Shown here: one piece after another, positions 9,041-62,861 of the stretch
Numbering within the stretch: the first letter of the stretch is position 1
How the letters are laid out: every line of letters starts with the position of its first letter
Assembly: GCA_947632405.1 (NCBI GenBank)
Contig: CANRPE010000003.1
Location: 322-64,321, forward strand
Length of the DNA: 64,000 nucleotides
Source: an uncultured Bacilli bacterium
Lineage (GTDB): Bacteria > Bacillota_I > Bacilli_A > RF39 > UBA660
Reading direction: 5' to 3'
Notes under the pieces: model-generated
The model's input: only the letters and a program-made list of their open reading frames with translations
What the model was told of the DNA's origin: nothing
Databases searched by the model: none
Made by a program: the position numbers and the translations under genes

Positions 9041-9125
9041 GTTCTAATGTCAAAAAAAGTCAAATCATTTGAAGATTGACTTTTTTTTATGTATAATTAT
9101 AGTGGAGAGTAATGGAGTGATAAAC

Positions 9126-11027
9126 ATGTCGTTAAAATATGATGATTCATCTATTAAAATATTAGAAGGATTAGAAGCTGTTAGAAAAAGGCCAGGAATG
9201 TATATAGGATCTACTGATAAACGTGGATTGCATCATTTAGTATGGGAAATTGTTGATAATTCTGTAGATGAAGCAATTAATGGTTATGGTGAAGCAATAA
9301 AAATTACTATTCATAAAGATAAAAGTATTAGTATAGAAGATCATGGACGTGGAGTACCTGTTGGTATGCATGAATCAGGTAAATCAACTCCAGAAGTTAT
9401 TTTTACAGTACTTCATGCTGGAGGTAAATTTGAAACAGATGGTTATAAAGTTTCTGGTGGTTTACATGGTGTTGGTTCTTCTGTTGTAAATGCTTTATCC
9501 AATTGGATGGAAGTAACAATAAAAAGAGATAAAGGTGAATATTATATTCGTTTTGAAAATGGTGGTAAAGTAGCAGTTCCATTAAAAAAAATAGGTACTA
9601 CTAATAAAACAGGAACAACTGTTAGATTTTTACCAGATGATACTATTTTTTCATCAACTAATTTTTCATATACAACTATTTGTGAAAGAATGCAAGAATC
9701 TGCTTTTTTATTAAAAGGAATATCTATTGAAGTAATTGATGAAGAAGATGGAAGACAAGTCAAATATTGTTATGAACGAGGTATTGAAGAATTTGTAGAA
9801 GAATTAAATAAAAGTAAAAATCAACTTCATAAAGTATTATCTATTCATGGAATTAAAGATAAAATCGAAGTTGACGTGTCAATGCAATATACTGATACAT
9901 ATACTGAAAATATTGTTAGTTTTGTTAATAATGTTAAAACAGTAGATGGAGGTAGTCATGAAGTTGGTTTTAAAACAGCACTTACTAGATGCTTTAATGA
10001 TTATGCCAAAACAAATGGTTTTATTAAAGGCAAAGAAAAACCATTAGAGGGTAGTGACGTAAGAGAAGGTTTAACAGCAGTTATCAGTTTAAAAATTCCA
10101 GAAGCATTATTACAATTTGAAGGACAAACTAAAGGAAAATTAGGTACTCCTCAAGCTCGTGTTGCTGTTGATACAATTGTAACAGAACAATTAAAAGTAT
10201 TTTTAGAAGAAAATAAAGTTGTAGCTACTGATATTATTAATAAATCTTTAAAAAGTAAAATAGCTCGAGAAGCCGCTCGAAAAGCTCGAGAAGAAGCTAG
10301 AAAAGGTAAAAATAAAAATAGTAAAGAAAGATCTTTATCTGGTAAATTAGCTCCTGCTCAAAGTAAAGATAAAACCCAAAAAGAATTATTTTTAGTTGAA
10401 GGAGATTCTGCTGGGGGCTCTGCAAAACAAGGCAGAGATCGAAAATATCAAGCAATTTTACCTTTACGTGGAAAAGTATTAAATACAGAAAAAACAAAAG
10501 AAGAAGATATTTTAAAAAATGAAGAAATTAATACAATGATTTATACAATTGGTGCTGGATATGGTCCTAATTTTTCAATTGAAGATTGTGAGTATTCTAA
10601 AGTAATCATCATGAGTGATGCTGATGAAGATGGTGGACATATTCAATGCCTATTGCTTACCTTCTTTTATCGATATATGAAACCATTAATTGAAGATGGA
10701 AGACTATTTGTTGCTTTACCACCACTTTTTAAAATTCAAAGTGGTAAAGATATTGATTATGCATATACTATCGAAGAAATGAAAGAAAAATCACAAGGAC
10801 GTAAGTGTGAAATTCAAAGATATAAAGGACTTGGTGAAATGAATGCAGACCAACTTTGTGAGACAACAATGCAAAAAGGAACTAGAACTTTAATTCGCGT
10901 AAATATAGAAGATGCTCAACTTGCAGAAAAACGTGTTTCAGTACTCATGGGCGATGATGTGGCACCTCGTAAAGAATGGATAGATGAAAATGTTGAATTT
11001 ACATTAGAAGATGAGTATCAAATATAA
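9126..11027 (+). CDS. parE: type IIA topoisomerase subunit B, most likely topoisomerase IV ParE
   Basis: GHKL and TOPRIM motifs (EGLEAVRKRPGMYIGS, LVEGDSAGGSAKQGRDR, IMSDADEDGGHI). Start moved to the ATG at 9126, which is preceded by ggagtga; the ORF-track start at 9069 adds a hydrophobic extension. Called ParE rather than GyrB because it is not in a dnaA/recF context. Confidence 0.8.
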   Translation: MSLKYDDSSIKILEGLEAVRKRPGMYIGSTDKRGLHHLVWEIVDNSVDEAINGYGEAIKITIHKDKSISIEDHGRGVPVGMHESGKSTPEVIFTVLHAGGKFETDGYKVSGGLHGVGSSVVNALSNWMEVTIKRDKGEYYIRFENGGKVAVPLKKIGTTNKTGTTVRFLPDDTIFSSTNFSYTTICERMQESAFLLKGISIEVIDEEDGRQVKYCYERGIEEFVEELNKSKNQLHKVLSIHGIKDKIEVDVSMQYTDTYTENIVSFVNNVKTVDGGSHEVGFKTALTRCFNDYAKTNGFIKGKEKPLEGSDVREGLTAVISLKIPEALLQFEGQTKGKLGTPQARVAVDTIVTEQLKVFLEENKVVATDIINKSLKSKIAREAARKAREEARKGKNKNSKERSLSGKLAPAQSKDKTQKELFLVEGDSAGGSAKQGRDRKYQAILPLRGKVLNTEKTKEEDILKNEEINTMIYTIGAGYGPNFSIEDCEYSKVIIMSDADEDGGHIQCLLLTFFYRYMKPLIEDGRLFVALPPLFKIQSGKDIDYAYTIEEMKEKSQGRKCEIQRYKGLGEMNADQLCETTMQKGTRTLIRVNIEDAQLAEKRVSVLMGDDVAPRKEWIDENVEFTLEDEYQI

Positions 11028-11484: not shown

Positions 11485-11501
11485 TAAAGTAGGTGATGCA
11501 A

Positions 11502-14030
11502 ATGGCAAAAAAAAGCGAAACAGAGGAAATAATAGAAAAAATTTTTGACTATACATTAGAAGATATCATGGGTGAACGATTTGGAAGTTATTCTAAATAT
11601 ATTATTCAAGATCGTGCAATACCTGATGCACGTGATGGCTTAAAACCAGTTCAACGCCGTATTTTATATTCAATGTATAAAGAACATAATACATATGATA
11701 AGGGTTATCGTAAAAGTGCTAAAACTGTTGGAGATGTAATTGGTAATTATCATCCACATGGTGATACATCTATTTATGATGCAATGGTTAGAATGAGTCA
11801 AGAATGGAAGACACGAATTCCATATATTGATATGCATGGTAATAATGGTTCTATTGATGGAGATAGTCCTGCAGCATATCGTTATACTGAAGCTCGACTT
11901 TCTAAAATTAGTAATGAAATGCTTAGAGATATTGATAAAAACACCGTTGAATTTGCTCCTAATTTTGATGATACAACAGAAGAACCAACAGTTTTACCAG
12001 CAAGATTTCCAGCCCTTCTTGTATATGGTGCTCAAGGTATTTCAGCAGGATATGCTACTAATATTCCTCCACATAATTTAGGAGAAATAATAGATGCTAC
12101 AATTCATCGAATAGATAATCCAAATTGTGGACTTGATACTTTAATGAAATATGTAAAAGGACCAGATTTTCCAACAGGAGGAATTGTAGAAGGTTTAGAC
12201 GGAATAAAACAAGCTTATGAAACAGGTAGAGGTAAAATTATTGTTAGATGCAAATATAAAATAGAAGAAGATAAAAATAAAACAGCAATAGTTATTACAG
12301 AAATTCCATATGAAGCAAACAAAACCTTAATGGTAAAGAAAATTGATGATATAAGAATTGATAAAAAAGTAGATGGAATTGTAGAAGTAAGAGATGAATC
12401 TGCAGCTGACGTTAGAATTGTTATAGATTTAAAAAAGAATGCTAATAAAGATTTAATTTTAAATTATTTACTAAAAAATACTGATATGCAAATTAGTTAT
12501 AATTTTAATATGGTATCAATTGTAAATAAAAGACCAAAATTATTAGGATTAAGAGAAGCACTAGATGCTTTTATTACTCATCAAAGACAAGTTGTAACTA
12601 GACGTACAGAATTTGATTTAGCTCATGCTGAAGCTCGTTTACATATCGTAGAAGGACTTATCAAATGTATTTCAATTCTTGATGAAGTAATTAAAGTAAT
12701 ACGTTCTAGTAAAAATAAAACAGATGCTAAAGAAAATTTAGTTAAAGAATTTGAATTCTCACTAACTCAAGCAGAAGCTATTGTTACTTTACAACTATAT
12801 CGTTTAACAAATACAGACGTTGTTCAATTAGAAGAAGAAATGACTAATTTGAAAAAAATTATCGAAGGTTTAAAATCAATTTTAGGTAATGAAGAAGTAT
12901 TAAAAAATGTTATGAAAAAAGATTTACGTGATGTAAAGAAAAATTATGCACAAGAACGAATAACTGATATAAAAGAAGAAATTACTGAAATTAAAATTGA
13001 TACATCTGTTATGATTCCAAAAGAAGATGTCGTTGTTTTAATAACAAAAGATGGTTATATAAAACGTACTAGTATTAGAAGTTATCAAGCTAGTGCACAA
13101 GAAGAACCATTATTAAAAGAAAATGATTATATAATAGGTTTATATGAAATGAATACACAAGATACCCTACTTGTATTCACAACAGATGGTAATTATTTAT
13201 ATATTCCTGTTCATACAATTTTTGATATAAAATGGAAAGATATTGGTAAACATATTTCAAATTTAATTGATTTATCACCAGATGAAAAAATAGTTTCAGC
13301 TATTCCTGTTTATGATTTTAATAGTGATAAAAATATTATTATTACAACAAAAAATGGTATGATTAAGAGAACAAAATTAGCTGATTTTAAATTAACTAGA
13401 TACTCAAAACCAACTAGTTGTATGAAATTAAAAGAAAAAGATGAAGTAATTACAGCAACTTTAGAAAACTATAATACTATTTTTATTACAACAGATACAG
13501 GATATGGTCTTAGTTTTCCTACAGCTGATATTCCAATAGTTGGTATAAAAGCAAGTGGTGTAAAATCAATAGTTTTAAAAAATGATAATGTAGTGTCAAG
13601 TGTTAATTTTGATTATACTTGTCATGAATTTATATCTATTATTACAGATAAAGGTACTGGAAAAAGAGTAAGATTAGGAGAATTTCCAATTTCAACACGT
13701 GCTCGTAGAGGACTTCTATTATTAAGAGAAGTTAAGACAAATCCATATAAAATTTTAAAGACCTTTATTGTAAATAATAAAGATTATCTTGGAATTAAAA
13801 CTGATAAACTTGCAACAATTAAAGTAACAGAATTACCAATTTTAGATCGTTATTCTACAGGTAGTCAAATATCGAAAAAAGAGATTATAGATGCCTATGT
13901 AGTTCAAGAAATAATGACTAAAGAAATAATTTCAAAAAATGTCATCAAAGAAAATATACCATCAAAAGAAAAAATTGATTTAAAAGAAATAGATGATAGA
14001 TTAATGACTATTGATGATTTTCTAAATTAA
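11502..14030 (+). CDS. parC: type IIA topoisomerase subunit A, most likely topoisomerase IV ParC
   Basis: DGLKPVQRRILY, the HPHGD quinolone-region motif, and AAYRYTEARL containing the catalytic Tyr. The start is ambiguous (GTG 11493, ATG 11496 or ATG 11502). Confidence 0.85.
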   Translation: MAKKSETEEIIEKIFDYTLEDIMGERFGSYSKYIIQDRAIPDARDGLKPVQRRILYSMYKEHNTYDKGYRKSAKTVGDVIGNYHPHGDTSIYDAMVRMSQEWKTRIPYIDMHGNNGSIDGDSPAAYRYTEARLSKISNEMLRDIDKNTVEFAPNFDDTTEEPTVLPARFPALLVYGAQGISAGYATNIPPHNLGEIIDATIHRIDNPNCGLDTLMKYVKGPDFPTGGIVEGLDGIKQAYETGRGKIIVRCKYKIEEDKNKTAIVITEIPYEANKTLMVKKIDDIRIDKKVDGIVEVRDESAADVRIVIDLKKNANKDLILNYLLKNTDMQISYNFNMVSIVNKRPKLLGLREALDAFITHQRQVVTRRTEFDLAHAEARLHIVEGLIKCISILDEVIKVIRSSKNKTDAKENLVKEFEFSLTQAEAIVTLQLYRLTNTDVVQLEEEMTNLKKIIEGLKSILGNEEVLKNVMKKDLRDVKKNYAQERITDIKEEITEIKIDTSVMIPKEDVVVLITKDGYIKRTSIRSYQASAQEEPLLKENDYIIGLYEMNTQDTLLVFTTDGNYLYIPVHTIFDIKWKDIGKHISNLIDLSPDEKIVSAIPVYDFNSDKNIIITTKNGMIKRTKLADFKLTRYSKPTSCMKLKEKDEVITATLENYNTIFITTDTGYGLSFPTADIPIVGIKASGVKSIVLKNDNVVSSVNFDYTCHEFISIITDKGTGKRVRLGEFPISTRARRGLLLLREVKTNPYKILKTFIVNNKDYLGIKTDKLATIKVTELPILDRYSTGSQISKKEIIDAYVVQEIMTKEIISKNVIKENIPSKEKIDLKEIDDRLMTIDDFLN

Positions 14031-14057
14031 AAAGTTGCACTTCGGTGTAATTTTTTC

Positions 14058-14088
14058 TTGCAAAATTACAAACGGGGGGGGGTATAAT
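14058..14088 (+). promoter_or_regulatory. cassette-1 promoter: TTGCAA -35, 19-nt spacer ending in a G9 tract (14074-14082), TATAAT -10
   Basis: Read directly: cTTGCAAaattacaaacGGGGGGGGGTATAATaatc. Preceded by the hairpin gttgcac-ttcg-gtgtaat plus a T-run (parC terminator). Confidence 0.6.
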
Positions 14089-14120
14089 AATCTTAGATAA
14101 ATAAAAATAGGTGATCTAGG

Positions 14121-15122
14121 ATGAAAGAAAAAATAAAAACTATTGCAATAATAATATTAATATTAATGGTAATATCAATAAGTGGAGTATACGCAGCAAC
14201 CATAATATCAAGTATAAATGTAGGATATAATAATGCAAGTTCTAAATTAGCAGCAGATAATGTTCAAGCTGCTATAGATGAAGTATATGATAAAAGTTTT
14301 TCAAAACCTTCAATAGTAGCATATGAATATAGTGAAAAAGATCCAAAATGTATAAATGGAGAAGAAAAAACATGTGTAAAGACAGACTGTTATAAAAAAG
14401 GAAAAACATGTAAACAAGGAACAGTTATCAAATATTATGTCAAAGAAAACGAATATCATTACTTTTACGTTCTAAGAGATGATGGAACAAAGATAACTAT
14501 GCAACAAAGAGAAAATACCATAAGAAATATACCATGGCATGCAGGAGCAAATGATAACAGCAAAGGACCAGATACAATCTTGCCACAATTAGAAGCAGCA
14601 ACTTCAACATGGGTAAATGTAAATGTGTTAAACTATGAACCTGGAGTAACAACATTATATGAAAATGCCAATACAGGCTGTACATATACAGCAAGTACAA
14701 CTTCTGATTATAAAATAAGATGCGAAAAGAACACATATACAAGTTCAGTATTAGGAAAAAGAAAAGCTCGTGCTAGAATGATAACAGCATTAGAAGCAGG
14801 AAGTACAGGTTGTTTGGTATACAAAGACGGCGCTACTGATAAAAGAGTTATACAACCAAGTATAAACGCATATAACTTTGGTTCATGTCCAGATTGGATG
14901 CATAATTATTTATGGGAATCAAAAAATTATGGTGGAAGTTATAATAATGATACAGTAAATGAAAACGAAAATCATGGTCATTGTTACTGGACCATGTCGG
15001 CTTACTCTGGTGACACTGCTTATGCGTGGAATGTGGGCCGTGCAGGTATCGTGAGCAGCGCCTACAATACTACTAATCCTCTCGGTGGTGCGCGTGCCGT
15101 TGTAGAAATAAATAAGTCATAA
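14121..15122 (+). CDS. secreted Cys-rich protein with C-terminal CLec/DUF1566-like domain; DGR variable protein, copy 1
   Basis: Signal peptide ending VYA|AT. C-terminus YWTMSAYSGDTAYAWNVGRAGIVSSAYNTTNPLGGARAVVEI. The 3' end is homologous to the TR. Confidence 0.85.
   Translation: MKEKIKTIAIIILILMVISISGVYAATIISSINVGYNNASSKLAADNVQAAIDEVYDKSFSKPSIVAYEYSEKDPKCINGEEKTCVKTDCYKKGKTCKQGTVIKYYVKENEYHYFYVLRDDGTKITMQQRENTIRNIPWHAGANDNSKGPDTILPQLEAATSTWVNVNVLNYEPGVTTLYENANTGCTYTASTTSDYKIRCEKNTYTSSVLGKRKARARMITALEAGSTGCLVYKDGATDKRVIQPSINAYNFGSCPDWMHNYLWESKNYGGSYNNDTVNENENHGHCYWTMSAYSGDTAYAWNVGRAGIVSSAYNTTNPLGGARAVVEINKS
14996..15103 (+). repeat. VR1, variable repeat of copy 1 (imperfect relative to the current TR)
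   Basis: Hand alignment to the TR. The first 52 nt differ only at 7 TR adenines. The rest carries further A-site changes, one T->G, one extra codon (aat), and a C->T in the 3' GC-rich end (gccgTtgta). Confidence 0.7.
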
Positions 15123-15147
15123 AATTACATATTATTTTATTTTTTTC

Positions 15148-15177
15148 TTGCAAAAACCAAAACGGGGGGGGTATAAT
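15148..15177 (+). promoter_or_regulatory. cassette-2 promoter: TTGCAA -35, 18-nt spacer ending in a G8 tract (15164-15171), TATAAT -10
   Basis: cTTGCAAaaaccaaaacGGGGGGGGTATAATagtc. One G shorter than in the other three cassettes. Confidence 0.6.
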
Positions 15178-15209
15178 AGTCTTAGATAAATAAAAATAGG
15201 TGGTCTAAG

Positions 15210-16211
15210 ATGAGAGAAAAAATTAAAATAGTAGTATCATTTATATTAGGGGGAATAATTTTAGGAGGAATTGGAGTATATGCAGCAACCATAATATCAA
15301 GTATAAATGTAGGATATAATAATGCAAGTTCTAAATTAGCAGCAGATAATGTTCAAGCTGCTATAGATGAAGTATATGATAAAAGTTTTTCAAAACCTTC
15401 AATAGTAGCATATGAATATAGTGAAAAAGATCCAAAATGTATAAATGGAGAAGAAAAAACATGTGTAAAGACAGACTGTTATAAAAAAGGAAAAACATGT
15501 AAACAAGGAACAGTTATCAAATATTATGTCAAAGAAAACGAATATCATTACTTTTACGTTCTAAGAGATGATGGCACAAAGATAACTATGCAACAAAGAG
15601 AAAATACCATAAGAAATATACCATGGCATGCAGGAGCAAATGATAACAGCAAAGGACCAGATACAATCTTGCCACAATTAGAAGCAGCAACTTCAACATG
15701 GGTAAATGTAAATGTGTTAAACTATGAACCTGGAGTAACAACATTATATGAAAATGCCAATACAGGCTGTACATATACAGCAAGTACAACTTCTGATTAT
15801 AAAATAAGATGCGAAAAGAACACATATACAAGTTCAGTATTAGGAAAAAGAAAAGCTCGTGCTAGAATGATAACAGCATTAGAAGCAGGAAGTACAGGTT
15901 GTTTGGTATACAAAGACGGCGCTACTGATAAAAGAGTTATATCTCCAAGTATAAACGCATATAATCAAGGTTCATGTCCAGACTGGATGCATAACTACTT
16001 ATATCAATCCAAAAATTATGGTGGTAGCTATAATAATGACACAGTAAACGAAAACGGAGTATATGATTATGATTACTGGACCATGTCGGCTGACTCTGGT
16101 GACACTGCTTATGCGTGGTTTGTGGGCCGTGGAGGTATCTTGGACAACCACGGCGCTACTAATGCTAACTATGGTGCGCGTGCCGTCGTCGAAATTACCA
16201 AATCATCATAG
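15210..16211 (+). CDS. secreted Cys-rich CLec/DUF1566-like protein; DGR variable protein, copy 2 (primary target)
   Basis: Identical to copy 1 over the central ~220 aa. C-terminus YWTMSADSGDTAYAWFVGRGGILDNHGATNANYGARAVVEITKSS contains VR2. Confidence 0.9.
   Translation: MREKIKIVVSFILGGIILGGIGVYAATIISSINVGYNNASSKLAADNVQAAIDEVYDKSFSKPSIVAYEYSEKDPKCINGEEKTCVKTDCYKKGKTCKQGTVIKYYVKENEYHYFYVLRDDGTKITMQQRENTIRNIPWHAGANDNSKGPDTILPQLEAATSTWVNVNVLNYEPGVTTLYENANTGCTYTASTTSDYKIRCEKNTYTSSVLGKRKARARMITALEAGSTGCLVYKDGATDKRVISPSINAYNQGSCPDWMHNYLYQSKNYGGSYNNDTVNENGVYDYDYWTMSADSGDTAYAWFVGRGGILDNHGATNANYGARAVVEITKSS
16085..16189 (+). repeat. VR2, variable repeat matching the TR
   Basis: 105 nt, colinear with TR 16429-16533 at a constant 344-nt offset with no indel. 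88 identities and 17 mismatches by hand count. Every mismatch sits where the TR has A (VR2 has G/T/C there). The 3' end ggtgcgcgtgccgtcgt is identical (IMH-like GC-rich block). Confidence 0.9.
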
Positions 16212-16220
16212 TGATTTGGT
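16197..16220 (+). promoter_or_regulatory. perfect 9-bp hairpin immediately 3' of VR2/IMH (accaaatca-tcatag-tgatttggt)
   Basis: Read directly; it spans the stop codon of copy 2. In position it matches the hairpin/cruciform downstream of the VR that is needed for retrohoming in the Bordetella phage DGR. The second arm is absent after copies 1, 3 and 4. Confidence 0.55.
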
Positions 16221-16428
16221 CTTTGCCGATAGGCATTAATGTGGAATAAGAAGGGATTATAATAAGGATGGTGATGCTGGTTTATTGATGGTTTAAAACG
16301 GAGTGGTAAAAAATGCTGAAAGCATTTTTGTGAAAAGAAGTTTCTTCTTTTCGTAAGGCGCCACAACTTGGTGCCTAAGATTTTGGGATAATACTGTGAT
16401 GTGTCGCGTGCTTTGGTACTGTCTTGGT

Positions 16429-16533
16429 GTCGGCTAACTCTGGTAACACTACTAATGCGTGGAATGTGAACCGTGAAGGTAACTTGAACAACAACAACAC
16501 TACTAATACTAACAATGGTGCGCGTGCCGTCGT
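16429..16533 (+). repeat. DGR template repeat (TR)
   Basis: Non-coding copy of the VR, rich in AAC/AAT codons in the VR frame (SANSGNTTNAWNVNREGNLNNNNTTNTNNGARAVV). I count 33 adenines. It lies upstream of the accessory genes and RT on the same strand. The ORF-track minus ORF 16169..16573 over it is spurious. Confidence 0.9.
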
Positions 16534-16883
16534 ATTTCTTTAAAACTAAATATTTATGACGTTTAATAGACAAATTATAAATAAAAAGCTAAAGAACAAG
16601 TATTATCCCACTTCTATTAGTATCTTTTAAAATAAGATATATAATATGAAGAAAAATATTATTAATGTGTAAATATATATGGTAACTACTAATTAGTGAA
16701 ATATGATAATTACAGTAAACATTAATATAAAATTTAAGTATTTGTAATGTTCAATATTTATGATACTACTTTGATTATACAAAGAAAGCCATAAATGAAG
16801 TTACAAAAAAAGGTGTAGTAGTATGTAAGCATCTTGTTTTTACTACTGCATCTTTTTATTTTAGAATAAAAGAGGTGTATATT

Positions 16884-17300
16884 ATGGTAGATTTATTTAG
16901 ATTATTAAAATTAGAATATAAAGATTATATTATATTATTTAAAAGTGGAAGTTTTTATTGTTGCTTGGATGAAGATGCTGTAGTAATAAGTAAATTATTT
17001 GATTATAAAATAAATGAATTAAGAAATCATATTAGAGTAGGTTTTCCAATTTCTTTGATAGACAAAAATACTGAAGTATTAAATAAGAAAAAAATTAGTT
17101 ATATTATAGTAGAAAATAAACAACTAGCAAAAATAAAGAAAATAAAAAATAATAATTATTCTAAGTATGTAGAAAGTGTATTTAATATAGTTAGTCTAAA
17201 TGCTAGAATAAATAAAATATGTGATACTTTAAAATCTATGAATGGTAAACAAGATATAGATGAATTATTAACTAAGATAGAGGATATTTTATATGGATAA
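16884..17300 (+). CDS. DGR accessory protein with MutS domain I-like (mismatch-binding-domain-like) fold
   Basis: LFRLLKLEYKDYIILFKSGSFYCCLDEDAVVISKLFDYKI...RVGFPISLIDKNTEVLNKKKISYIIVE aligns with the N-terminus of the MutS in this window ([43 protein letters not shown]...[27 protein letters not shown]). FYE is replaced by FYC. Start set at ATG 16884 after aaagagg. The stop overlaps the avd start (ATGGATAA). Confidence 0.65.
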   Translation: MVDLFRLLKLEYKDYIILFKSGSFYCCLDEDAVVISKLFDYKINELRNHIRVGFPISLIDKNTEVLNKKKISYIIVENKQLAKIKKIKNNNYSKYVESVFNIVSLNARINKICDTLKSMNGKQDIDELLTKIEDILYG

Positions 17301-17637
17301 TTCTAATATTATTCTAAGATTGAAAAAGACTATTATTTATGTAGATAAGGTATTAGAAAATTTTCCAAGGAATGAATATATATTAAAGAAAAGAATTAGT
17401 AATTGTATGTATGATATGTTAGAAGAATCATATGAAGCTTATTTAGATTATGAAAATAAGAATACAATAATTAAAAAAATTTTAACTAAAATGAAAATGT
17501 TAGATTTTTATTTAAAATTATCTTTTGATAAAAGTGCAATTTCTCATAAAAATATAAAAACTATTTCTATTAATTTAAGAGATATTACTAGTATGTATTA
17601 TGCTTGGTTTAATTCAAAAAATGAAACGAAAAAATAA
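17293..17637 (+). CDS. avd: accessory variability determinant (Avd; four-helix-bundle / S23-IVS-like protein)
   Basis: 114 aa, predicted all-helical. The LENFPRNEYILKKRISNCMYDMLEESYEA motif is typical of Avd/PF05635-like proteins. Lies directly upstream of the RT and overlaps it. Confidence 0.75.
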   Translation: MDNSNIILRLKKTIIYVDKVLENFPRNEYILKKRISNCMYDMLEESYEAYLDYENKNTIIKKILTKMKMLDFYLKLSFDKSAISHKNIKTISINLRDITSMYYAWFNSKNETKK

Positions 17638-18733
17638 TTTATATTATGCTATATGTAATTTAGATAATATTAGATTTATTTATGATACTAAAGTAAAAAT
17701 AACAACCAAAAATAAAAAGAAAGTATTAGGTTTTGATAATTATTATTTAGAAAATATATTTTCTATTAAGGATATTTTATCAAATGAAAAATATATTCCA
17801 GGTCATTATAATATTTTTTTAGTTAGTGAACCTAAAATTAGAGTAGTTATGAGTCAAAATATGTATGATAAAATTATTAATCATTTAGTTAGTTATTATA
17901 TATTGAAACCAGTTATTCTTCCTTGTTTAATAGAACAAAATGTTGCAACTAGGGAGTTAAAAGGAACTGATTATGGAATTAAATTATTTAAGAAATATTT
18001 AAATAAAATTAAATATGAAGCTGATGAATTTTATATTTTGAAATTTGATATATCCAAGTATTTTTATAATATTAATCATAAAGTATTAAAGGAAATGTTA
18101 AATAAGAAAATAAAGGATAAAAAGGCATTACATATTTTATATCAAATTATTGATAGTACAAATGAAAAATATATAAATAATAGTATTAAGCATTTAGTAG
18201 AATGTTATAAGAAAAAAGATATTAGTGAAAAAGTTAAAGAAGAATTAGATAAGATACCTATCTATGAAAATGGAAAGGGTTTACCTATTGGAAATATGAC
18301 AAGTCAAATATTAGCTATTTTTTATTTAAATGATTTAGATCATTATATAAAAGAAGAATTAAAAATTAAATATTATATTAGATATATGGATGATGGTATT
18401 TTAATGCATAAGGATAAGAATTATTTAAGATATTGTTTAGTTAAAATAAATGATATAGTTGAAAAATTTTATCATTTGAAGTTAAATAAGAAAACTAAAA
18501 TATTTTCTAGTAAAGAATCTATAGAATTTTTAGGTTTTAATTATAGATTAAGAAATAAAAAGTTAATTGTAAAAGTAAAAAATCAAACTAAAAAAAGATT
18601 TAAAAGAAAAATTAAAGCACTTAAAAAAAGTCATTCTGATAAATATCAACATGTAGTTGGAAGTTATAAAGGACATTTGAAGTATGCTAATAGTAAAAAT
18701 TTGTTATATGAAACTTTATCTAAGAGATATTAG
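17621..18733 (+). CDS. DGR reverse transcriptase
   Basis: RT motifs including YIRYMDDGIL (YxDD) and LPIGNMTSQILAIFYL, which is the DGR-specific [LIV]GxxxSQ motif. About 370 aa, with no maturase, endonuclease or RNase H domain. The start is either ATG 17600 or ATG 17621. Confidence 0.9.
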   Translation: MKRKNNLYYAICNLDNIRFIYDTKVKITTKNKKKVLGFDNYYLENIFSIKDILSNEKYIPGHYNIFLVSEPKIRVVMSQNMYDKIINHLVSYYILKPVILPCLIEQNVATRELKGTDYGIKLFKKYLNKIKYEADEFYILKFDISKYFYNINHKVLKEMLNKKIKDKKALHILYQIIDSTNEKYINNSIKHLVECYKKKDISEKVKEELDKIPIYENGKGLPIGNMTSQILAIFYLNDLDHYIKEELKIKYYIRYMDDGILMHKDKNYLRYCLVKINDIVEKFYHLKLNKKTKIFSSKESIEFLGFNYRLRNKKLIVKVKNQTKKRFKRKIKALKKSHSDKYQHVVGSYKGHLKYANSKNLLYETLSKRY

Positions 18734-18810
18734 ATATAGAATTATAAGTTATTTTCTAAATTAATATAGAATAGTTAAATTTAAAAAGTTACACTTGGTG
18801 TAATTTTTTC

Positions 18811-18841
18811 TTGCAAAAATATAAACGGGGGGGGGTATAAT
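18811..18841 (+). promoter_or_regulatory. cassette-3 promoter: TTGCAA -35, 19-nt spacer ending in G9 (18827-18835), TATAAT -10
   Basis: cTTGCAAaaatataaacGGGGGGGGGTATAATaatc, preceded by the hairpin ttacac-ttg-gtgtaa plus a T-run. Confidence 0.6.
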
Positions 18842-18873
18842 AATCTTAGATAAATAAAAATAGGTGATCTAGG

Positions 18874-19878
18874 ATGAAAGAAAAAATAAAAACTATTGCA
18901 ATAATAATATTAATATTAATATTAATGGTAATATCAATAAGTGGAGTATACGCAGCAACTATAATATCAAGTATAAATGTTGGTTATAGTAATGCAAATT
19001 CCAAGTTAGCAGCAGATAATGTTCAAGCTGCTATAGACGAAGTATATGATAAAAGTTTTTCAAAACCTTCAATAGTAGCCTATGAATATAGTGAAGAAGA
19101 TCCAAAATGTATAAATGGTGAAGAAAAAACATGTGTAAAAACAGATTGTTATAAAAAAGGAAAAATATGTAAACAAGGAACAGTTATCAAATATTATGTC
19201 AAAGAAAACGAATATCATTATTTTTATGTATTAAGAGATAACGGAACAATAATAACCATGCAACAAAGAGAAAACACAATAAGAAATATACCATGGCATG
19301 CGGGAACAAATGATAATAGTAAAGGACCTGATACAATATTACCAGCCTTAGAACAAGCAACTTCTACCTGGGTAAATGTAAATGTACTAGAATATGAACC
19401 TGGAGTAACGACATTATATGAAAATGTTTATACAGGTTGTACATGGACTGTAAGCACAACTTCTGATTATAAAATAAGGTGCGAAGCAAATAAATATACA
19501 AGTACAGTCTTAGGAACAAGAAAAGCACGAGCTAGAATGATAACAGCATTAGAAGCTTCAGCTACAGGTTGTTTAGTATGGAAAGATGGAACAACAGATA
19601 AAAGAATTATATCTCCAAGTATAAATGTATATAATGCTGGTTCTTGTCCAGACTTTATGCATAATTATCTGCATAATTCAAAAAATTATGGTGGTAGCTA
19701 TAATAATGATTCAACTAATGAAAAAGATGAATCTGATTCTGGTTATTGGACCATGTCAGCTCGTTCTAATAACTCAAATATAGCATTTGACGTTGGATTT
19801 GGTGGTAATATGAATTATTATAATACTACAGATACTAAAGATGGAGCACGAGCAGTTGTCGAAATAACCAAATCATAA
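18874..19878 (+). CDS. secreted Cys-rich CLec/DUF1566-like paralog, copy 3 (no TR-matching VR)
   Basis: Clearly homologous to copies 1 and 2, but diverged at many positions. C-terminus YWTMSARSNNSNIAFDVGFGGNMNYYNTTDTKDGARAVVEITKS is encoded by AT-rich codons with many non-A differences from the TR. Confidence 0.85.
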   Translation: MKEKIKTIAIIILILILMVISISGVYAATIISSINVGYSNANSKLAADNVQAAIDEVYDKSFSKPSIVAYEYSEEDPKCINGEEKTCVKTDCYKKGKICKQGTVIKYYVKENEYHYFYVLRDNGTIITMQQRENTIRNIPWHAGTNDNSKGPDTILPALEQATSTWVNVNVLEYEPGVTTLYENVYTGCTWTVSTTSDYKIRCEANKYTSTVLGTRKARARMITALEASATGCLVWKDGTTDKRIISPSINVYNAGSCPDFMHNYLHNSKNYGGSYNNDSTNEKDESDSGYWTMSARSNNSNIAFDVGFGGNMNYYNTTDTKDGARAVVEITKS

Positions 19879-19902
19879 ATTACACTTCGGTGTAATTTTT
19901 AC

Positions 19903-19933
19903 TTGCAAAAATATAAACGGGGGGGGGTATAAT
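19903..19933 (+). promoter_or_regulatory. cassette-4 promoter: TTGCAA -35, 19-nt spacer ending in G9 (19919-19927), TATAAT -10
   Basis: cTTGCAAaaatataaacGGGGGGGGGTATAATaatc, preceded by the hairpin aattacac-ttcg-gtgtaatt. Confidence 0.6.
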
Positions 19934-19965
19934 AATCTTAGATAAATAAAAATAGGTGATCTAGG

Positions 19966-20964
19966 ATGAAAGAAAAAATAAAAACTATTGCAATAATAAT
20001 ATTAATATTAATGGTAATATCAATAAGTGGAGTATACGCAGCAACTATAATATCAAGTATAAATGTAGGATATAGTAATGAAAGTTCCAAGTTAGTAGCA
20101 GATAATGTTCAAGATGCAATAGATGAAGTATATGATAAAAGTTTTAATAAAGAATTAATAACAGCCTATGAATATAGTGAACAAGAACCAAAATGTATAA
20201 ACGGAGAAGAAAAGACATGTGTAAAAACAGATTGTTATAAAAAAGGACAAACATGTGAACAAGGAACAGTTATAAAATATTATGTCAAAGAAAATGAATA
20301 TCATTATTTCTATGTATTAAGAGATGATGGCACAAAAATAACTATGCAACAAAGAGAAAATACCATAAGAAATATAGCATGGCATGCAGGAGAAAATGAT
20401 AATAGTAAAGGGCCAGATACAGTATTACTAGCTTTAGAACAAGCAACTTCAACGTGGACAAATGTAAATATAATAGAATATGAGCCAGGGATAACTAATT
20501 TATATGAAAATGCTTACACAGGTTGTACCTATAATTCAGGTACTTCAGGAGATTATAAAATAAAATGTGAAACAAATACATATACAAGTTCAGTCTTAGG
20601 AACAAGAAAAGCACGAGCAAGGATGATTACAGCATTAGAAGCAGGAAGTACAGGTTGCTTAGTATACAAAGATGGTGCTGCTGATAATAGAGTTATTCAA
20701 CCAAGTATAAACGCATGGAATAATGGTTCCTGTCCAGATTTTATGCATAATTATTTATATGGATCAAAAAATACTGGAGGAAGTTATAATAATGATACAG
20801 TAAATGAAAATGAAGTATATGATTATGCCTACTGGACAATGTCTTCTTACTCTGATGATACTACTCTCGCATGGTGTATAAATCGTGGTGGTAACTTTGA
20901 TGATAGTGGAGTTACTGGTACTGGAGTTGGTGCACGAGCAGTCGTAGAAATTGATAAAGATTAA
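19966..20964 (+). CDS. secreted Cys-rich CLec/DUF1566-like paralog, copy 4 (no TR-matching VR)
   Basis: Same family. C-terminus YWTMSSYSDDTTLAWCINRGGNFDDSGVTGTGVGARAVVEIDKD, with the GARAVV block encoded as ggtgcacgagcagtcgta. A terminator hairpin follows (aataaac...gtttatt plus T-run). Confidence 0.85.
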   Translation: MKEKIKTIAIIILILMVISISGVYAATIISSINVGYSNESSKLVADNVQDAIDEVYDKSFNKELITAYEYSEQEPKCINGEEKTCVKTDCYKKGQTCEQGTVIKYYVKENEYHYFYVLRDDGTKITMQQRENTIRNIAWHAGENDNSKGPDTVLLALEQATSTWTNVNIIEYEPGITNLYENAYTGCTYNSGTSGDYKIKCETNTYTSSVLGTRKARARMITALEAGSTGCLVYKDGAADNRVIQPSINAWNNGSCPDFMHNYLYGSKNTGGSYNNDTVNENEVYDYAYWTMSSYSDDTTLAWCINRGGNFDDSGVTGTGVGARAVVEIDKD

Positions 20965-21043
20965 TTTATAATAAACTGATAACTTATTGGTTTATTTTTT
21001 TTATTATTCTTGCTATAATATAAATAGAAGGAAGGTAGAAAAT

Positions 21044-27526: not shown

Positions 27527-27596
27527 AAAAATATTCTATTTTTGTTATAATTAAGGAGTTCATTAACTTATAAGACAAAGAAAGGAGACTAATTTT

Positions 27597-60229: not shown

Positions 60230-60311
60230 TTGAAAAAATATACTTAGCGCAGTATATTTTTTCTTTTAACTTTTTTGATATTTTGATATAATATTTTTAG
60301 TGGTGAACAAT

Positions 60312-62861
60312 ATGAAAAGAAGTACAGTTGATAGAACAAAATTAAGTCCAATGATGCTCCAATATATGGAAATAAAAGATAAATATGAGGATTGTATAAT
60401 CTTTTTTAGACTTGGTGATTTTTATGAAATGTTTTTTGATGATGCAATTCTTGCTTCTCGTGAATTAGAACTTACATTAACTGGTAAAAATGCAGGTCTT
60501 GATGAAAGAGTTCCAATGTGTGGAGTTCCTCATCATGCATATGCTTCATATATTGATACTTTAATTGAAAAAGGATATAAAGTTGCAATCGTTGAACAAC
60601 TAGAAGATCCAAAATTAGTTAAGGGAATGGTTAAAAGAGATGTTATTCAAGTAGTAACCAAAGGAACTAGAATTGATAATAATTTAGATAGTAAAAATAA
60701 TAATTATATTGCTAATATTTATGATTTTGATTATTGTAAAGGGATTAGTTTTACTGATATTTCAACAGGAGAATTTTATTGCGAATTATTAGAATATAAC
60801 CAAGATGAAATAATTAGAGAAGTTGTAAGACGAGGATTTAAAGAATTAATTGTAAATGAAAAAATTGATCGAGAATTAGTTAATATTCTTCGTTCTACTT
60901 ATGGAATATTAGTTACTATTACTAAAGAACTTGATGATACTAAAGAATATCAGTATATATATGAAGATATTGATGATCCTAGAATTATTACAACAATAAA
61001 ACATTTATTATATTATGTTTTAGATGCTAAAAAAGGAGATTTGCATCACTTAAAAAAATGTGAAATAATTAGTAGTCAAAAAACATTATTTTTTGATAAT
61101 AATACTAAGAAAAATCTTGAATTAGTTGAAACAATTCGTTCTCGTGATCGACAATATTCATTATTATGGCTATTAGATAAAAATAAAACTGCCATGGGAT
61201 CACGTTATTTAAAACATGAAATAGAAAATCCTTTAACTGATAAAAAAGAATTAGAAAGAAGATATAATTTTATTGAAAAATTATCTACTGAATTTATTTT
61301 ACGAGATGATTTAAGAAATTATTTAGATCAAGTCTATGATTTAGAGCGCTTAGCTGCTAGAATTAGTTATGGAAATTTAAATGCTAGAGATATGTTACAA
61401 TTAAAAAAATCATTAAATGTTCTTCCAGATATTAAAAATATATTAGAACAACTTGATTATGATAAGACCATTAATCCTATTACAGAAGTAGCATCTCTTT
61501 TAGAAAAATCTATCCATGAAGATCCACCTCTAACTTTAAAAGAAGGTTCACTTATTAAAGATGGCTATAATTCAGAATTAGATGAATTAAGAAAACTAAG
61601 TAGTGGTTCAAAAGATTTTATTTTAGAAATTGAACATCAAGAAAAAGAACGTACAGGTATTAAAACTTTAAAAGTAGGTTTTAATAAAATATTTGGCTAT
61701 TATATTGAAGTTAGTAAAGGCCAAAAGAATCTAGTTAAAGAAGAATATGGCTATGAACGAAGACAGACTTTAGCGAATTGTGAAAGATATACAACGCCAT
61801 TATTAAAAGAAAAAGAAAATATAATTTTAGGTGCTGAAGAAAAAATTATTAACCTAGAATACAAATTATTTATGGATATTCGTGAAATTATTAAAAGATA
61901 TATTACGCTTATTCAAGAAGTATCAAAAATTATTAGTGAAGTAGATATGTTGCAATCATTTTCTATTGTGAGTGATGAAAATAAATTTGTTAGGCCAAAA
62001 TTAGTTGATGAAAAATCTCTAGAATTAATTGAATGTCGTCATCCTGTTATTGAGAAAGTATTAACAACTAAATATGTAGCTAATGATATTATAATGGATA
62101 AATCGACTGATATTTTATTAATTACAGGTCCAAATATGGCAGGTAAATCTACTTATATGCGTCAATGTGCAATTACTATTATTATGGCTCAAATTGGTTG
62201 TTTTGTTCCTTGCAAAAGCTGTAAAATGCCTATATTTGATAAAATATTTACTCGAATTGGAGCAAGCGATGATTTAGTAAGTGGTGAATCTACTTTTATG
62301 ATTGAGATGAAAGAAGCCAATTATGCAATATCAGAAGCAACTGAAAATAGTTTAATTTTGTTCGATGAATTAGGTCGAGGAACAGCAACATATGATGGTA
62401 TGAGTCTTGCTCAGGCAATATTAGAATATATTCATGATAAAATTAAAGCTAAAACTATGTTTTCCACACATTATCATGAATTGACTGCTTTAGAAAAAGA
62501 TTTAAAACATTTAAAAAATGTTCATGTATCAGCTATAGAAGAAGCTGGAAAAATAACTTTTTTACATAAAGTTAAACCAGGTTCTATTGACAAAAGTTAT
62601 GGTATCCACGTTGCTAGTTTAGCTAAATTACCACTTGAATTAATTAATCGTAGTAAAAATATATTAGATATATATGAAAATAAAAAAGGCAAACAAGAGA
62701 CATTTACACAAACTTCTTTATTTGAACTTGATGAAGAAGAAATTAATGAACAAGAAAATAAAAATGAACTAGAAGAAAAAATAAAAGAAATAAATCCTTT
62801 AGAAATGTCTCCTATTGAAGCACTTAACTTTTTATATGAATTGAAGAAAAATATGAAGTAA
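60312..62861 (+). CDS. mutS: DNA mismatch repair protein MutS
   Basis: GDFYEMF mismatch-binding motif, GPNMAGKSTYMRQ Walker A, STFMIEM, DELGRGT. Not adjacent to mutL in this genome. Confidence 0.95.
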   Translation: MKRSTVDRTKLSPMMLQYMEIKDKYEDCIIFFRLGDFYEMFFDDAILASRELELTLTGKNAGLDERVPMCGVPHHAYASYIDTLIEKGYKVAIVEQLEDPKLVKGMVKRDVIQVVTKGTRIDNNLDSKNNNYIANIYDFDYCKGISFTDISTGEFYCELLEYNQDEIIREVVRRGFKELIVNEKIDRELVNILRSTYGILVTITKELDDTKEYQYIYEDIDDPRIITTIKHLLYYVLDAKKGDLHHLKKCEIISSQKTLFFDNNTKKNLELVETIRSRDRQYSLLWLLDKNKTAMGSRYLKHEIENPLTDKKELERRYNFIEKLSTEFILRDDLRNYLDQVYDLERLAARISYGNLNARDMLQLKKSLNVLPDIKNILEQLDYDKTINPITEVASLLEKSIHEDPPLTLKEGSLIKDGYNSELDELRKLSSGSKDFILEIEHQEKERTGIKTLKVGFNKIFGYYIEVSKGQKNLVKEEYGYERRQTLANCERYTTPLLKEKENIILGAEEKIINLEYKLFMDIREIIKRYITLIQEVSKIISEVDMLQSFSIVSDENKFVRPKLVDEKSLELIECRHPVIEKVLTTKYVANDIIMDKSTDILLITGPNMAGKSTYMRQCAITIIMAQIGCFVPCKSCKMPIFDKIFTRIGASDDLVSGESTFMIEMKEANYAISEATENSLILFDELGRGTATYDGMSLAQAILEYIHDKIKAKTMFSTHYHELTALEKDLKHLKNVHVSAIEEAGKITFLHKVKPGSIDKSYGIHVASLAKLPLELINRSKNILDIYENKKGKQETFTQTSLFELDEEEINEQENKNELEEKIKEINPLEMSPIEALNFLYELKKNMK

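Follow-up and report, generated by a model that had tools for sequence, protein, structure and literature searches.

Poly-G tracts in the promoter spacers of a secreted-protein gene family of uncultured gut Bacilli: a candidate slipped-strand expression switch, with one member targeted by a diversity-generating retroelement

Introduction

Slippage of ±1 nucleotide in a homopolymeric tract between the -35 and -10 elements reportedly alters transcription of the porA gene by changing the length of the spacer, a mechanism credited to van der Ende et al. 1995. The vlp genes of Mycoplasma hyorhinis are said, after Citti and Wise 1995, to switch independently of one another through a poly-A tract in the promoter spacer, and Willems et al. 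1990 reportedly found that the length of a poly-C tract sets expression of the fim2, fim3 and fimX genes of Bordetella pertussis. Mycoplasmas belong to the same GTDB class, Bacilli, as the organism considered here. We analyzed a stretch of 64,000 nucleotides (the window) from an uncultured Bacilli bacterium of the RF39 lineage (GenBank assembly GCA_947632405.1, contig CANRPE010000003.1, positions 322 to 64,321). It carries four paralogous genes for proteins with a signal-peptide-like N-terminus, each preceded by an unbroken run of eight or nine G residues between a -35-like TTGCAA and a TATAAT -10 element; one of the four is the target of a diversity-generating retroelement (DGR).

The porA and opc tracts of Neisseria meningitidis are polymorphic among isolates (PMC6735796). 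The tract described here recurs ahead of related genes at many loci and also occurs in more than one length. We consider a slipped-strand expression switch of the porA/vlp/fim kind the best reading of this tract, and a somewhat probable one.

Results

Four promoter modules with an unbroken G tract

From the window alone, the original prediction had placed tracts of G9, G8, G9 and G9 between TTGCAA and TATAAT ahead of the four genes. Direct reading of positions 13800-20400 confirms these positions, as well as the resulting spacers of 19, 18, 19 and 19 nt for copies 1 to 4, and the tracts do sit in a plausible -35/-10 spacer. Every module consists of TTGCAA, 10 nt ending in AAAC, the G tract, TATAAT directly abutting it, a leader of about 32 nt containing AGGTG, and the ATG. 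The -35-like TTGCAA is the same in all four copies (more distant loci, described below, have TTGATT), the leader ends in aggtgatctaggATG in copies 1, 3 and 4 and in aggtggtctaagATG in copy 2, and the four upstream modules are 91% identical. Their elements are as follows:

14029-14057, + strand: hairpin TTGCACTTCGGTGTAA and T-run TTTTTT following gyrA (RNA fold -10.6 kcal/mol, z -6.9)
14058-14063, + strand: -35-like TTGCAA, copy 1
14074-14082, + strand: G9 tract, copy 1 (19-nt spacer)
14083-14088, + strand: -10 TATAAT, copy 1, followed by the conserved leader AATCTTAGATA...AGGTGATCTAGG and the ATG at 14121
15148-15153, + strand: -35-like TTGCAA, copy 2
15164-15171, + strand: G8 tract, copy 2 (18-nt spacer)
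15172-15177, + strand: -10 TATAAT, copy 2
18783-18810, + strand: hairpin and T-run before copy 3 (-8.9 kcal/mol, z -4.7)
18811-18816, + strand: -35-like TTGCAA, copy 3
18827-18835, + strand: G9 tract, copy 3 (19-nt spacer)
18836-18841, + strand: -10 TATAAT, copy 3
19877-19902, + strand: hairpin and T-run between copies 3 and 4 (-7.9 kcal/mol, z -6.2)
19903-19908, + strand: -35-like TTGCAA, copy 4
19919-19927, + strand: G9 tract, copy 4 (19-nt spacer)
19928-19933, + strand: -10 TATAAT, copy 4

The hairpin and T-run form part of the repeated module as a putative terminator or insulator. Before copy 2 (15118-15148) the hairpin is degenerate, folding at -1.7 kcal/mol versus -8 to -10.6 kcal/mol for copies 1, 3 and 4, so that copy 2, and perhaps the template repeat and reverse transcriptase genes behind it, could receive read-through from the copy 1 promoter.

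Chance does not account for the tracts. The four are the only G runs of at least 7 in the 64 kb, which hold no C run of at least 5. For G runs of at least 8, the four observed compare with 0.01 expected under a first-order Markov model; the pattern TTGCAA-N6-AAAC-G8 likewise has four matches versus 0.02 expected in the window. The original prediction had argued that four such tracts were very unlikely by chance. They are indeed far beyond chance, but the copies are paralogues and cannot be counted as four independent events: with modules this similar, we are dealing with one inherited feature copied four times. Outside the tracts the genome avoids slippery runs, with no A run of at least 9 and no further G or C run of at least 7. 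On the + strand, A runs are depleted (at least 9, 0 versus 17 expected; at least 8, 16 versus 39 expected), and T runs show no such depletion.

The tract marks a dispersed gene family

Other genomes provide support that is independent of the window: in them the unbroken tract lies directly against TATAAT, in 23 distinct flank contexts. Homologues of the copy 2 protein number 163, encoded at dispersed loci and often several to a contig. Loci were fetched with a protein anchor or with an anchor in the downstream block (GGGGGTATAATAATCTTAGAT in genomes, GGGTATAATAATCTTAGATA in metagenomes), and a DNA-pattern scan with G5-TATAATAATCTTAGAT recovered genome matches, whose sources were metagenome-assembled genomes labelled "uncultured Bacilli bacterium" from the human gut, Hadza samples included. 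A protein-pattern scan of the GTDB representative genomes found nothing, and exact-protein look-ups for P0002 and P0020 returned nothing on record. In all, 45 complete tracts were recovered, from human-gut metagenomes and one ground-squirrel sample. All 45 have the form TTGCAA or TTGATT, 9-11 nt, G8-10, TATAAT, and not one carries an interrupting substitution, whereas the 9-11 nt separating the -35 from the tract are free to vary. An uninterrupted G run beside a freely varying spacer points to selection on the identity of the G residues and not on spacer length alone.

Three classes of gene lie behind the tract. The first comprises close paralogues located downstream of unrelated genes (glucosaminidase, LGT, WhiA), and the second orthologues with about 59% identity to copy 2, whose single-copy loci adjoin lepA or an adenosine deaminase gene. 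All that proteins of the third class have in common is the signal peptide and an N-terminal module, YAAT...NVQAAIDG; their genes were found at L005, L007, L012 and L019, and also at L008, L010 and L013. The two that were scanned (L005 and L012) contain Pfam Gp10_C, a domain of the phage T4 baseplate receptor-binding type, and the L007 and L019 proteins resemble them in sequence. Judging from these fusions, the promoter module would behave like a portable expression-and-export head joined to varied binding domains. The hairpin travels with it in near relatives: TTGCACTTCGGTGTAA also precedes family genes behind unrelated upstream genes at L038, L042 and L044. At distant loci a different hairpin usually occupies the same position, and some loci have none.

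The tract is thus a hallmark of a broad secreted-protein family present at many loci and in many genomes, and not of the DGR cassette. Two family members lack it. One, at L039 (8950-10996), is 84% identical to copy 2, has a different N-terminus and lies directly 3' of a tyrosine recombinase (Phage_integrase) gene; the next family gene downstream has a normal G9 module. This layout recalls the recombinase-linked surface-gene clusters of mycoplasmas. The other, at L040, is part of a subfamily of 450-aa proteins.

The same conservation bears on the notion that the tract is a functionless passenger of cassette duplication, which we find scarcely credible. It would suit the non-independence of the four window copies, with their nearly identical upstream modules. 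On the other hand, the tract persists where the proteins share the N-terminal module only and the spacer and hairpin sequences have diverged, and a neutral G9 would decay in a genome of 25% GC. Conservation of the uninterrupted tract across genomes effectively refutes a passenger origin.

Many short metagenome contigs (L001, L002, L009, L011, L042, L043, L045) begin or end at or inside the promoter module, some of them ending in the midst of the G run. The breaks probably reflect the dispersed, repeated nature of the module, and they mean that tract lengths are under-sampled in assemblies.

The tract varies in length

Among the 45 tracts, 40 are G9, three G10 and two G8; total spacers measure 19 nt in 38 cases, 20 nt in four and 18 nt in three. 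The comparison of tract lengths among relatives that the original prediction had called for thus yields three lengths, and at two loci the tract is the sole indel between near-identical strains. Eight contigs assembled from different samples cover the P0091 locus with 99.9-100% identity over 1.3-4.5 kb, and the only indel among them separates six with G9 from two with G10 (L036 and L037; samples ERZ28615125 and ERZ27287351). L003 and L014 (JABLTO010149368), both from the lepA-adjacent locus, are 97.7% identical over 2.7 kb, with a single gap, G9 in the former versus G8 in the latter. The tract is therefore the most indel-prone site in the loci compared, with G9 dominant, and the polymorphism that characterizes promoter-spacer phase variation is present, although at a modest level (5/45 tracts differ from G9). 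In Campylobacter jejuni, phase-variable poly-G tracts have a modal length of nine, with insertions prevailing at G8 and deletions at G11 (PMC3401435); by analogy, the G9 mode and the ±1 variants seen here fit that pattern.

Could the G8 and G10 tracts be homopolymer errors of short-read sequencing or assembly, the tracts themselves being real but of constant length? Every variant differs by ±1, the assemblies are Illumina metagenomes (at least one contig, L035, has a coverage of only 2.5), and the many contigs that break at or inside the module mark the region as hard to assemble. Yet G10 was obtained in two contigs that come from different samples and pipelines and are otherwise identical. 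In the comparisons made with the reference contig L030, neither its one other homopolymer of at least 8, an A8, nor the remaining alignment shows any indel, and the G8 copy in the window has private substitutions on both sides of its tract. We therefore regard an artefactual origin of the variants as quite improbable.

Spacing logic and the proposed switch

The best sigma-70-like promoters elsewhere in the window have a TTGACA-like -35, a spacer of 17-18 nt and TGnTATAAT; examples lie at 27546, 31860, 49500 and 62888, and a tRNA promoter is alike. (A generic promoter and terminator scan gave 142 matches versus 152 in shuffled sequence, such DNA being AT-rich and 19-nt spacers being missed by design.) Set against these promoters, a 19-nt spacer without the T of TGn looks suboptimal and an 18-nt spacer canonical, and since the organism uses canonical spacing, a change of 1 bp between 18 and 20 nt should matter. 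G9 would probably give low expression and G8 higher expression. A low G9 state would fit a family that is mostly quiet at the level of the population consensus.

In the mechanism we propose, each family gene would be a self-contained module made of a terminator hairpin, a promoter, a short leader, a signal peptide and a secreted protein. The hairpin would shield the module from upstream transcription; the promoter would be of the sigma-A type (TTGCAA or TTGATT, spacer, TATAAT), and the leader would supply the Shine-Dalgarno sequence. The last 8-10 bases of the spacer, an unbroken G run, would lengthen or shorten by one G through slipped-strand mispairing as the DNA replicates, and every such event would shift the -35/-10 distance by 1 bp and thereby change promoter strength. 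One could envision G9 (19-nt spacer) as the ground state and G8 (18 nt) as falling in the range of the genome's ordinary promoters. The outcome would be a stochastic, heritable and reversible variation of expression, gene by gene, working as a volume control or as an on/off switch. We infer that TTGCAA/TATAAT serves as the working promoter, that transcription responds to tract length and that switching takes place within populations. The gene class is the expected one for promoter-spacer phase variation, namely a signal-peptide-like multigene family with four copies in the window; by analogy, signal-peptide-like products of a multi-copy, multi-locus family would be typical of contingency genes.

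Several observations weigh against such a switch. No tract gives a 17-nt spacer, the optimum to which the original prediction had found the shortest spacer to be closest. G9 persists irrespective of whether the remaining spacer measures 9, 10 or 11 nt, for totals of 18-20 nt, so that the junction of G9 with TATAAT is more conserved than the -35/-10 distance. The P0098 locus has G9 in all eight informative contigs, strains 1.4-2.5% diverged included, and the 89% share of G9 overall suits a constrained fixed length as well as it suits a mutational attractor. The genome encodes a full five-domain MutS, which should damp slippage. Finally, the ±1 differences derive from the short-read metagenome assemblies discussed above, in which homopolymers may be miscalled.

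Alternatively, G9 could be a fixed-length cis element of a family-specific promoter, and the occasional G8 and G10 its neutral or mildly harmful slippage products. The element could be bound by a regulator or sigma factor dedicated to the family, or its rigid A-like helix could allow a promoter with a 19-bp spacer to work. Retention of G9 fits a recognition element of fixed length and a mutational attractor equally. For the former speak the occurrence of G9 in 40/45 tracts from both human and ground-squirrel gut samples, its constant abutment on TATAAT (one locus has an extra T) while the distance to the -35 varies between 18 and 20 nt, and the presence of MutS. Moreover, AATCTTAGATA is near-invariant just 3' of the -10, a hint that the block as a whole is read by a protein, and the tract supplies a G at -14, one half of the TGn extended -10 found in the genome's other promoters. 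Against it, no candidate regulator is linked to the loci, whose neighboring genes differ every time. Binding sites normally tolerate some degeneracy, and yet not a single tract has a substitution. A homopolymer would also be the most mutable way to encode such an element, in a genome that purges homopolymers, and at the two polymorphic loci it is precisely the tract that differs. On balance we think a fixed element unlikely, and retain the slipped-strand switch as our preferred interpretation.

Two other candidates were rejected. A MerR-type promoter, with its 19-20 bp spacer, resembles the module in the 19-nt length only, the T/A-rich and G-run spacer having no dyad. A G-quadruplex initiator of the Neisseria pilE type does not fit a single run of 8-10 G without neighboring G runs.

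The leader has features of its own. Conservation of AATCTTAGATA right after the -10 holds throughout the 23 contexts (window 14089-14123, copies 2-4, L003-L045) and exceeds that of the coding sequence. It contributes to an inverted repeat, TCTTAG/CTAAGA, in which AATCTTAGATA pairs with bases just before the ATG, flanking the Shine-Dalgarno sequence; the consensus fold is weak (-4 kcal/mol), and a search for compensatory pairs in this repeat found none. At the lepA-adjacent locus the 5' arm alone is kept. The repeat could act as an operator for a protein or fold into a weak hairpin in the leader. Rfam covariance models detected no family over the promoter module.

One copy is the target of a diversity-generating retroelement

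The four genes flank or belong to a cassette arranged in the order target, template repeat (TR), MutS_I-like accessory gene (MSL), avd and reverse transcriptase gene (RT), where VR denotes the variable region of a target:

14121-15122, + strand: paralogue 1, 333 aa, signal-peptide-like N-terminus, VR-like 3' end at 14996-15103
15210-16211, + strand: paralogue 2, 333 aa, canonical DGR target, VR at 16085-16189
16429-16533, + strand: DGR template repeat, aligned core of 105 nt with 33 adenines
16875-17300, + strand: MutS_I-like DGR accessory protein, MSL (Pfam MutS_I, E 2.4e-8)
17293-17637, + strand: bAvd accessory protein (Pfam bAvd, E 4e-11)
17600-18733, + strand: DGR reverse transcriptase (Pfam RVT_1, E 7e-14)
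18874-19878, + strand: paralogue 3, 334 aa, not a current DGR target (28 non-A mismatches to TR)
19966-20964, + strand: paralogue 4, 332 aa, not a current DGR target (19 non-A mismatches to TR)

The RVT_1, bAvd and MutS_I-like matches, together with adenine-only differences between TR and VR, identify the cassette as a DGR, and its MSL accessory class has been described before (PMC5758913). The VR of copy 2 matches TR at 88 positions; the 17 mismatches all fall at TR adenines and none at other bases. The original prediction that the copy with the shortest spacer is the DGR target holds, the clean target being the G8 copy. The VR-like end of copy 1 differs from TR at 16 A sites and three non-A sites and has a 3-nt insertion, and could be a decaying target or a second one that is still active. 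One change in this end touches the GC-rich 3' boundary (GCCGTTGT versus GCCGTCGT). A role of the G tract as a DGR target-recognition element was rejected: it lies 5' of every gene, including those at loci where the fetched DNA contains no DGR, and no such tract follows copies 2 and 4 on the 3' side.

The paralogous proteins are 80-89% identical to copy 1. They begin with a hydrophobic, signal-peptide-like segment that has a VYA-A motif and no lipobox Cys, and are predicted to be secreted, with a putative location at the surface. An AlphaFold model of copy 2 (mc4ec6221a9b8) is confident from about residue 60 (mean pLDDT 84). Its sole significant PDB match is an IgA peptidase of Thomasclavelia ramosa (9qa6, E 6.7e-4, TM 0.33, 297 columns), and the C-type-lectin and FGE-like matches that a DGR variable domain would lead one to expect all score weakly (E above 1). 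T. ramosa is another member of the gut Bacilli.

The notion of two layers of variation in one gene family, put forward in the original prediction, stands for copy 2 and perhaps copy 1, and not for the family at large: for most members, the DNA that was fetched contains no adjacent DGR, which limits the idea to these one or two genes. Within this limit, poly-G switches may choose which paralogues each cell expresses, and the DGR may rewrite the ligand-binding end of the up-switched paralogue, here the G8 copy. We put this forward tentatively and with some doubt. Copy 2 is both uninsulated from copy 1 and directly upstream of the TR-MSL-avd-RT block.

Genomic setting

The window is bacterial chromosome, 25.1% GC, with nearly all of its genes on the + strand. 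The genes that identify it as such are:

9069-11027: GyrB, shortly upstream of copy 1
11493-14030: GyrA, shortly upstream of copy 1
60300-62861: MutS, full, five domains

Two tRNAs are the sole Rfam matches at gathering score. A megablast of positions 13000-21000 to phage genomes gave no match and a scan of viral contigs for the promoter module found none, which argues that the element is chromosomal and not phage-borne. PBP, LtaS and LytR genes at related loci indicate a walled lineage. The host MutS (60300-62861) and the MSL of the DGR (16875-17300) share a weak match of 30 residues in domain I (40% identity, E 4e-4).

Discussion

Among gut commensals, most of what is known about phase variation concerns the invertible promoters of Bacteroides. 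A promoter switch that is based on repeats and acts on a large secreted-protein family in an uncultured, small-genome lineage of Bacilli would add a second mode, and would flag the proteins of the family as contingency factors facing the host or phages. By comparison with porA/opc, vlp and fim, the mechanism would belong to a class already known, the novelty being its occurrence in an uncultured gut commensal lineage. The most novel element is the pairing of the tract with a DGR target, in one or two of many family members. Literature searches on DGRs with homopolymer phase variation, on RF39 with DGRs and on simple-sequence-repeat promoter switches in gut metagenomes found no prior description; if real, the two-layer system would be the first case on record in which slipped-strand phase variation is coupled to DGR diversification. 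A single gene would then combine two layers, a variable expression state and a diversifying sequence, which bears on the number of variants that a population actually displays. In practical terms, the invariant block G9-TATAATAATCTTAGATA offers a cheap tag with which to find the family and measure tract-length heterogeneity in existing metagenome reads.

The closest parallels are the porA (poly-G) and opc (poly-C) promoters, which also have a run of about 9-11 G or C residues between -35 and -10, there ahead of a gene for an outer-surface protein. In contrast to them, the present tract is common to a whole multi-locus family, directly abuts the -10 and gives a modal spacer of 19 nt; it belongs to an uncultured gut commensal lineage of Gram-positive type. 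The vlp system is similar in family structure. Both are multigene families whose members each have a conserved promoter, leader and signal peptide, a homopolymer in the spacer and divergent C-terminal regions. The vlp tract is poly-A and its products are lipoproteins, whereas here the tract is poly-G and the signal peptide looks ordinary (VYA-AT, without a lipobox Cys); moreover, mycoplasmas have no mismatch repair and this genome has MutS. The fim genes, too, are several paralogous genes for surface proteins with a C/G homopolymer upstream of the -10, but the Bordetella tract spaces the site of an activator, BvgA, from the -10, and no activator is known here.

The likeness to C. jejuni is one of genome composition: that genome is AT-rich as well, confines its G/C runs to contingency genes and has a modal tract length of nine, towards which mutation tends to drive the tracts (PMC3401435). 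Most of its tracts, unlike ours, lie inside reading frames and act by translational frameshift, in a bacterium that lacks MutS and MutL. As for the retroelement, the MSL-type DGRs of Bacteroides and Legionella (architecture D, Wu et al. 2018) have the same organization, with a target carrying a C-terminal VR followed by TR, MSL, Avd and RT, and the same adenine-specific differences between TR and VR. What sets the present cassette apart is that its target belongs to a family with a G tract in the promoter.

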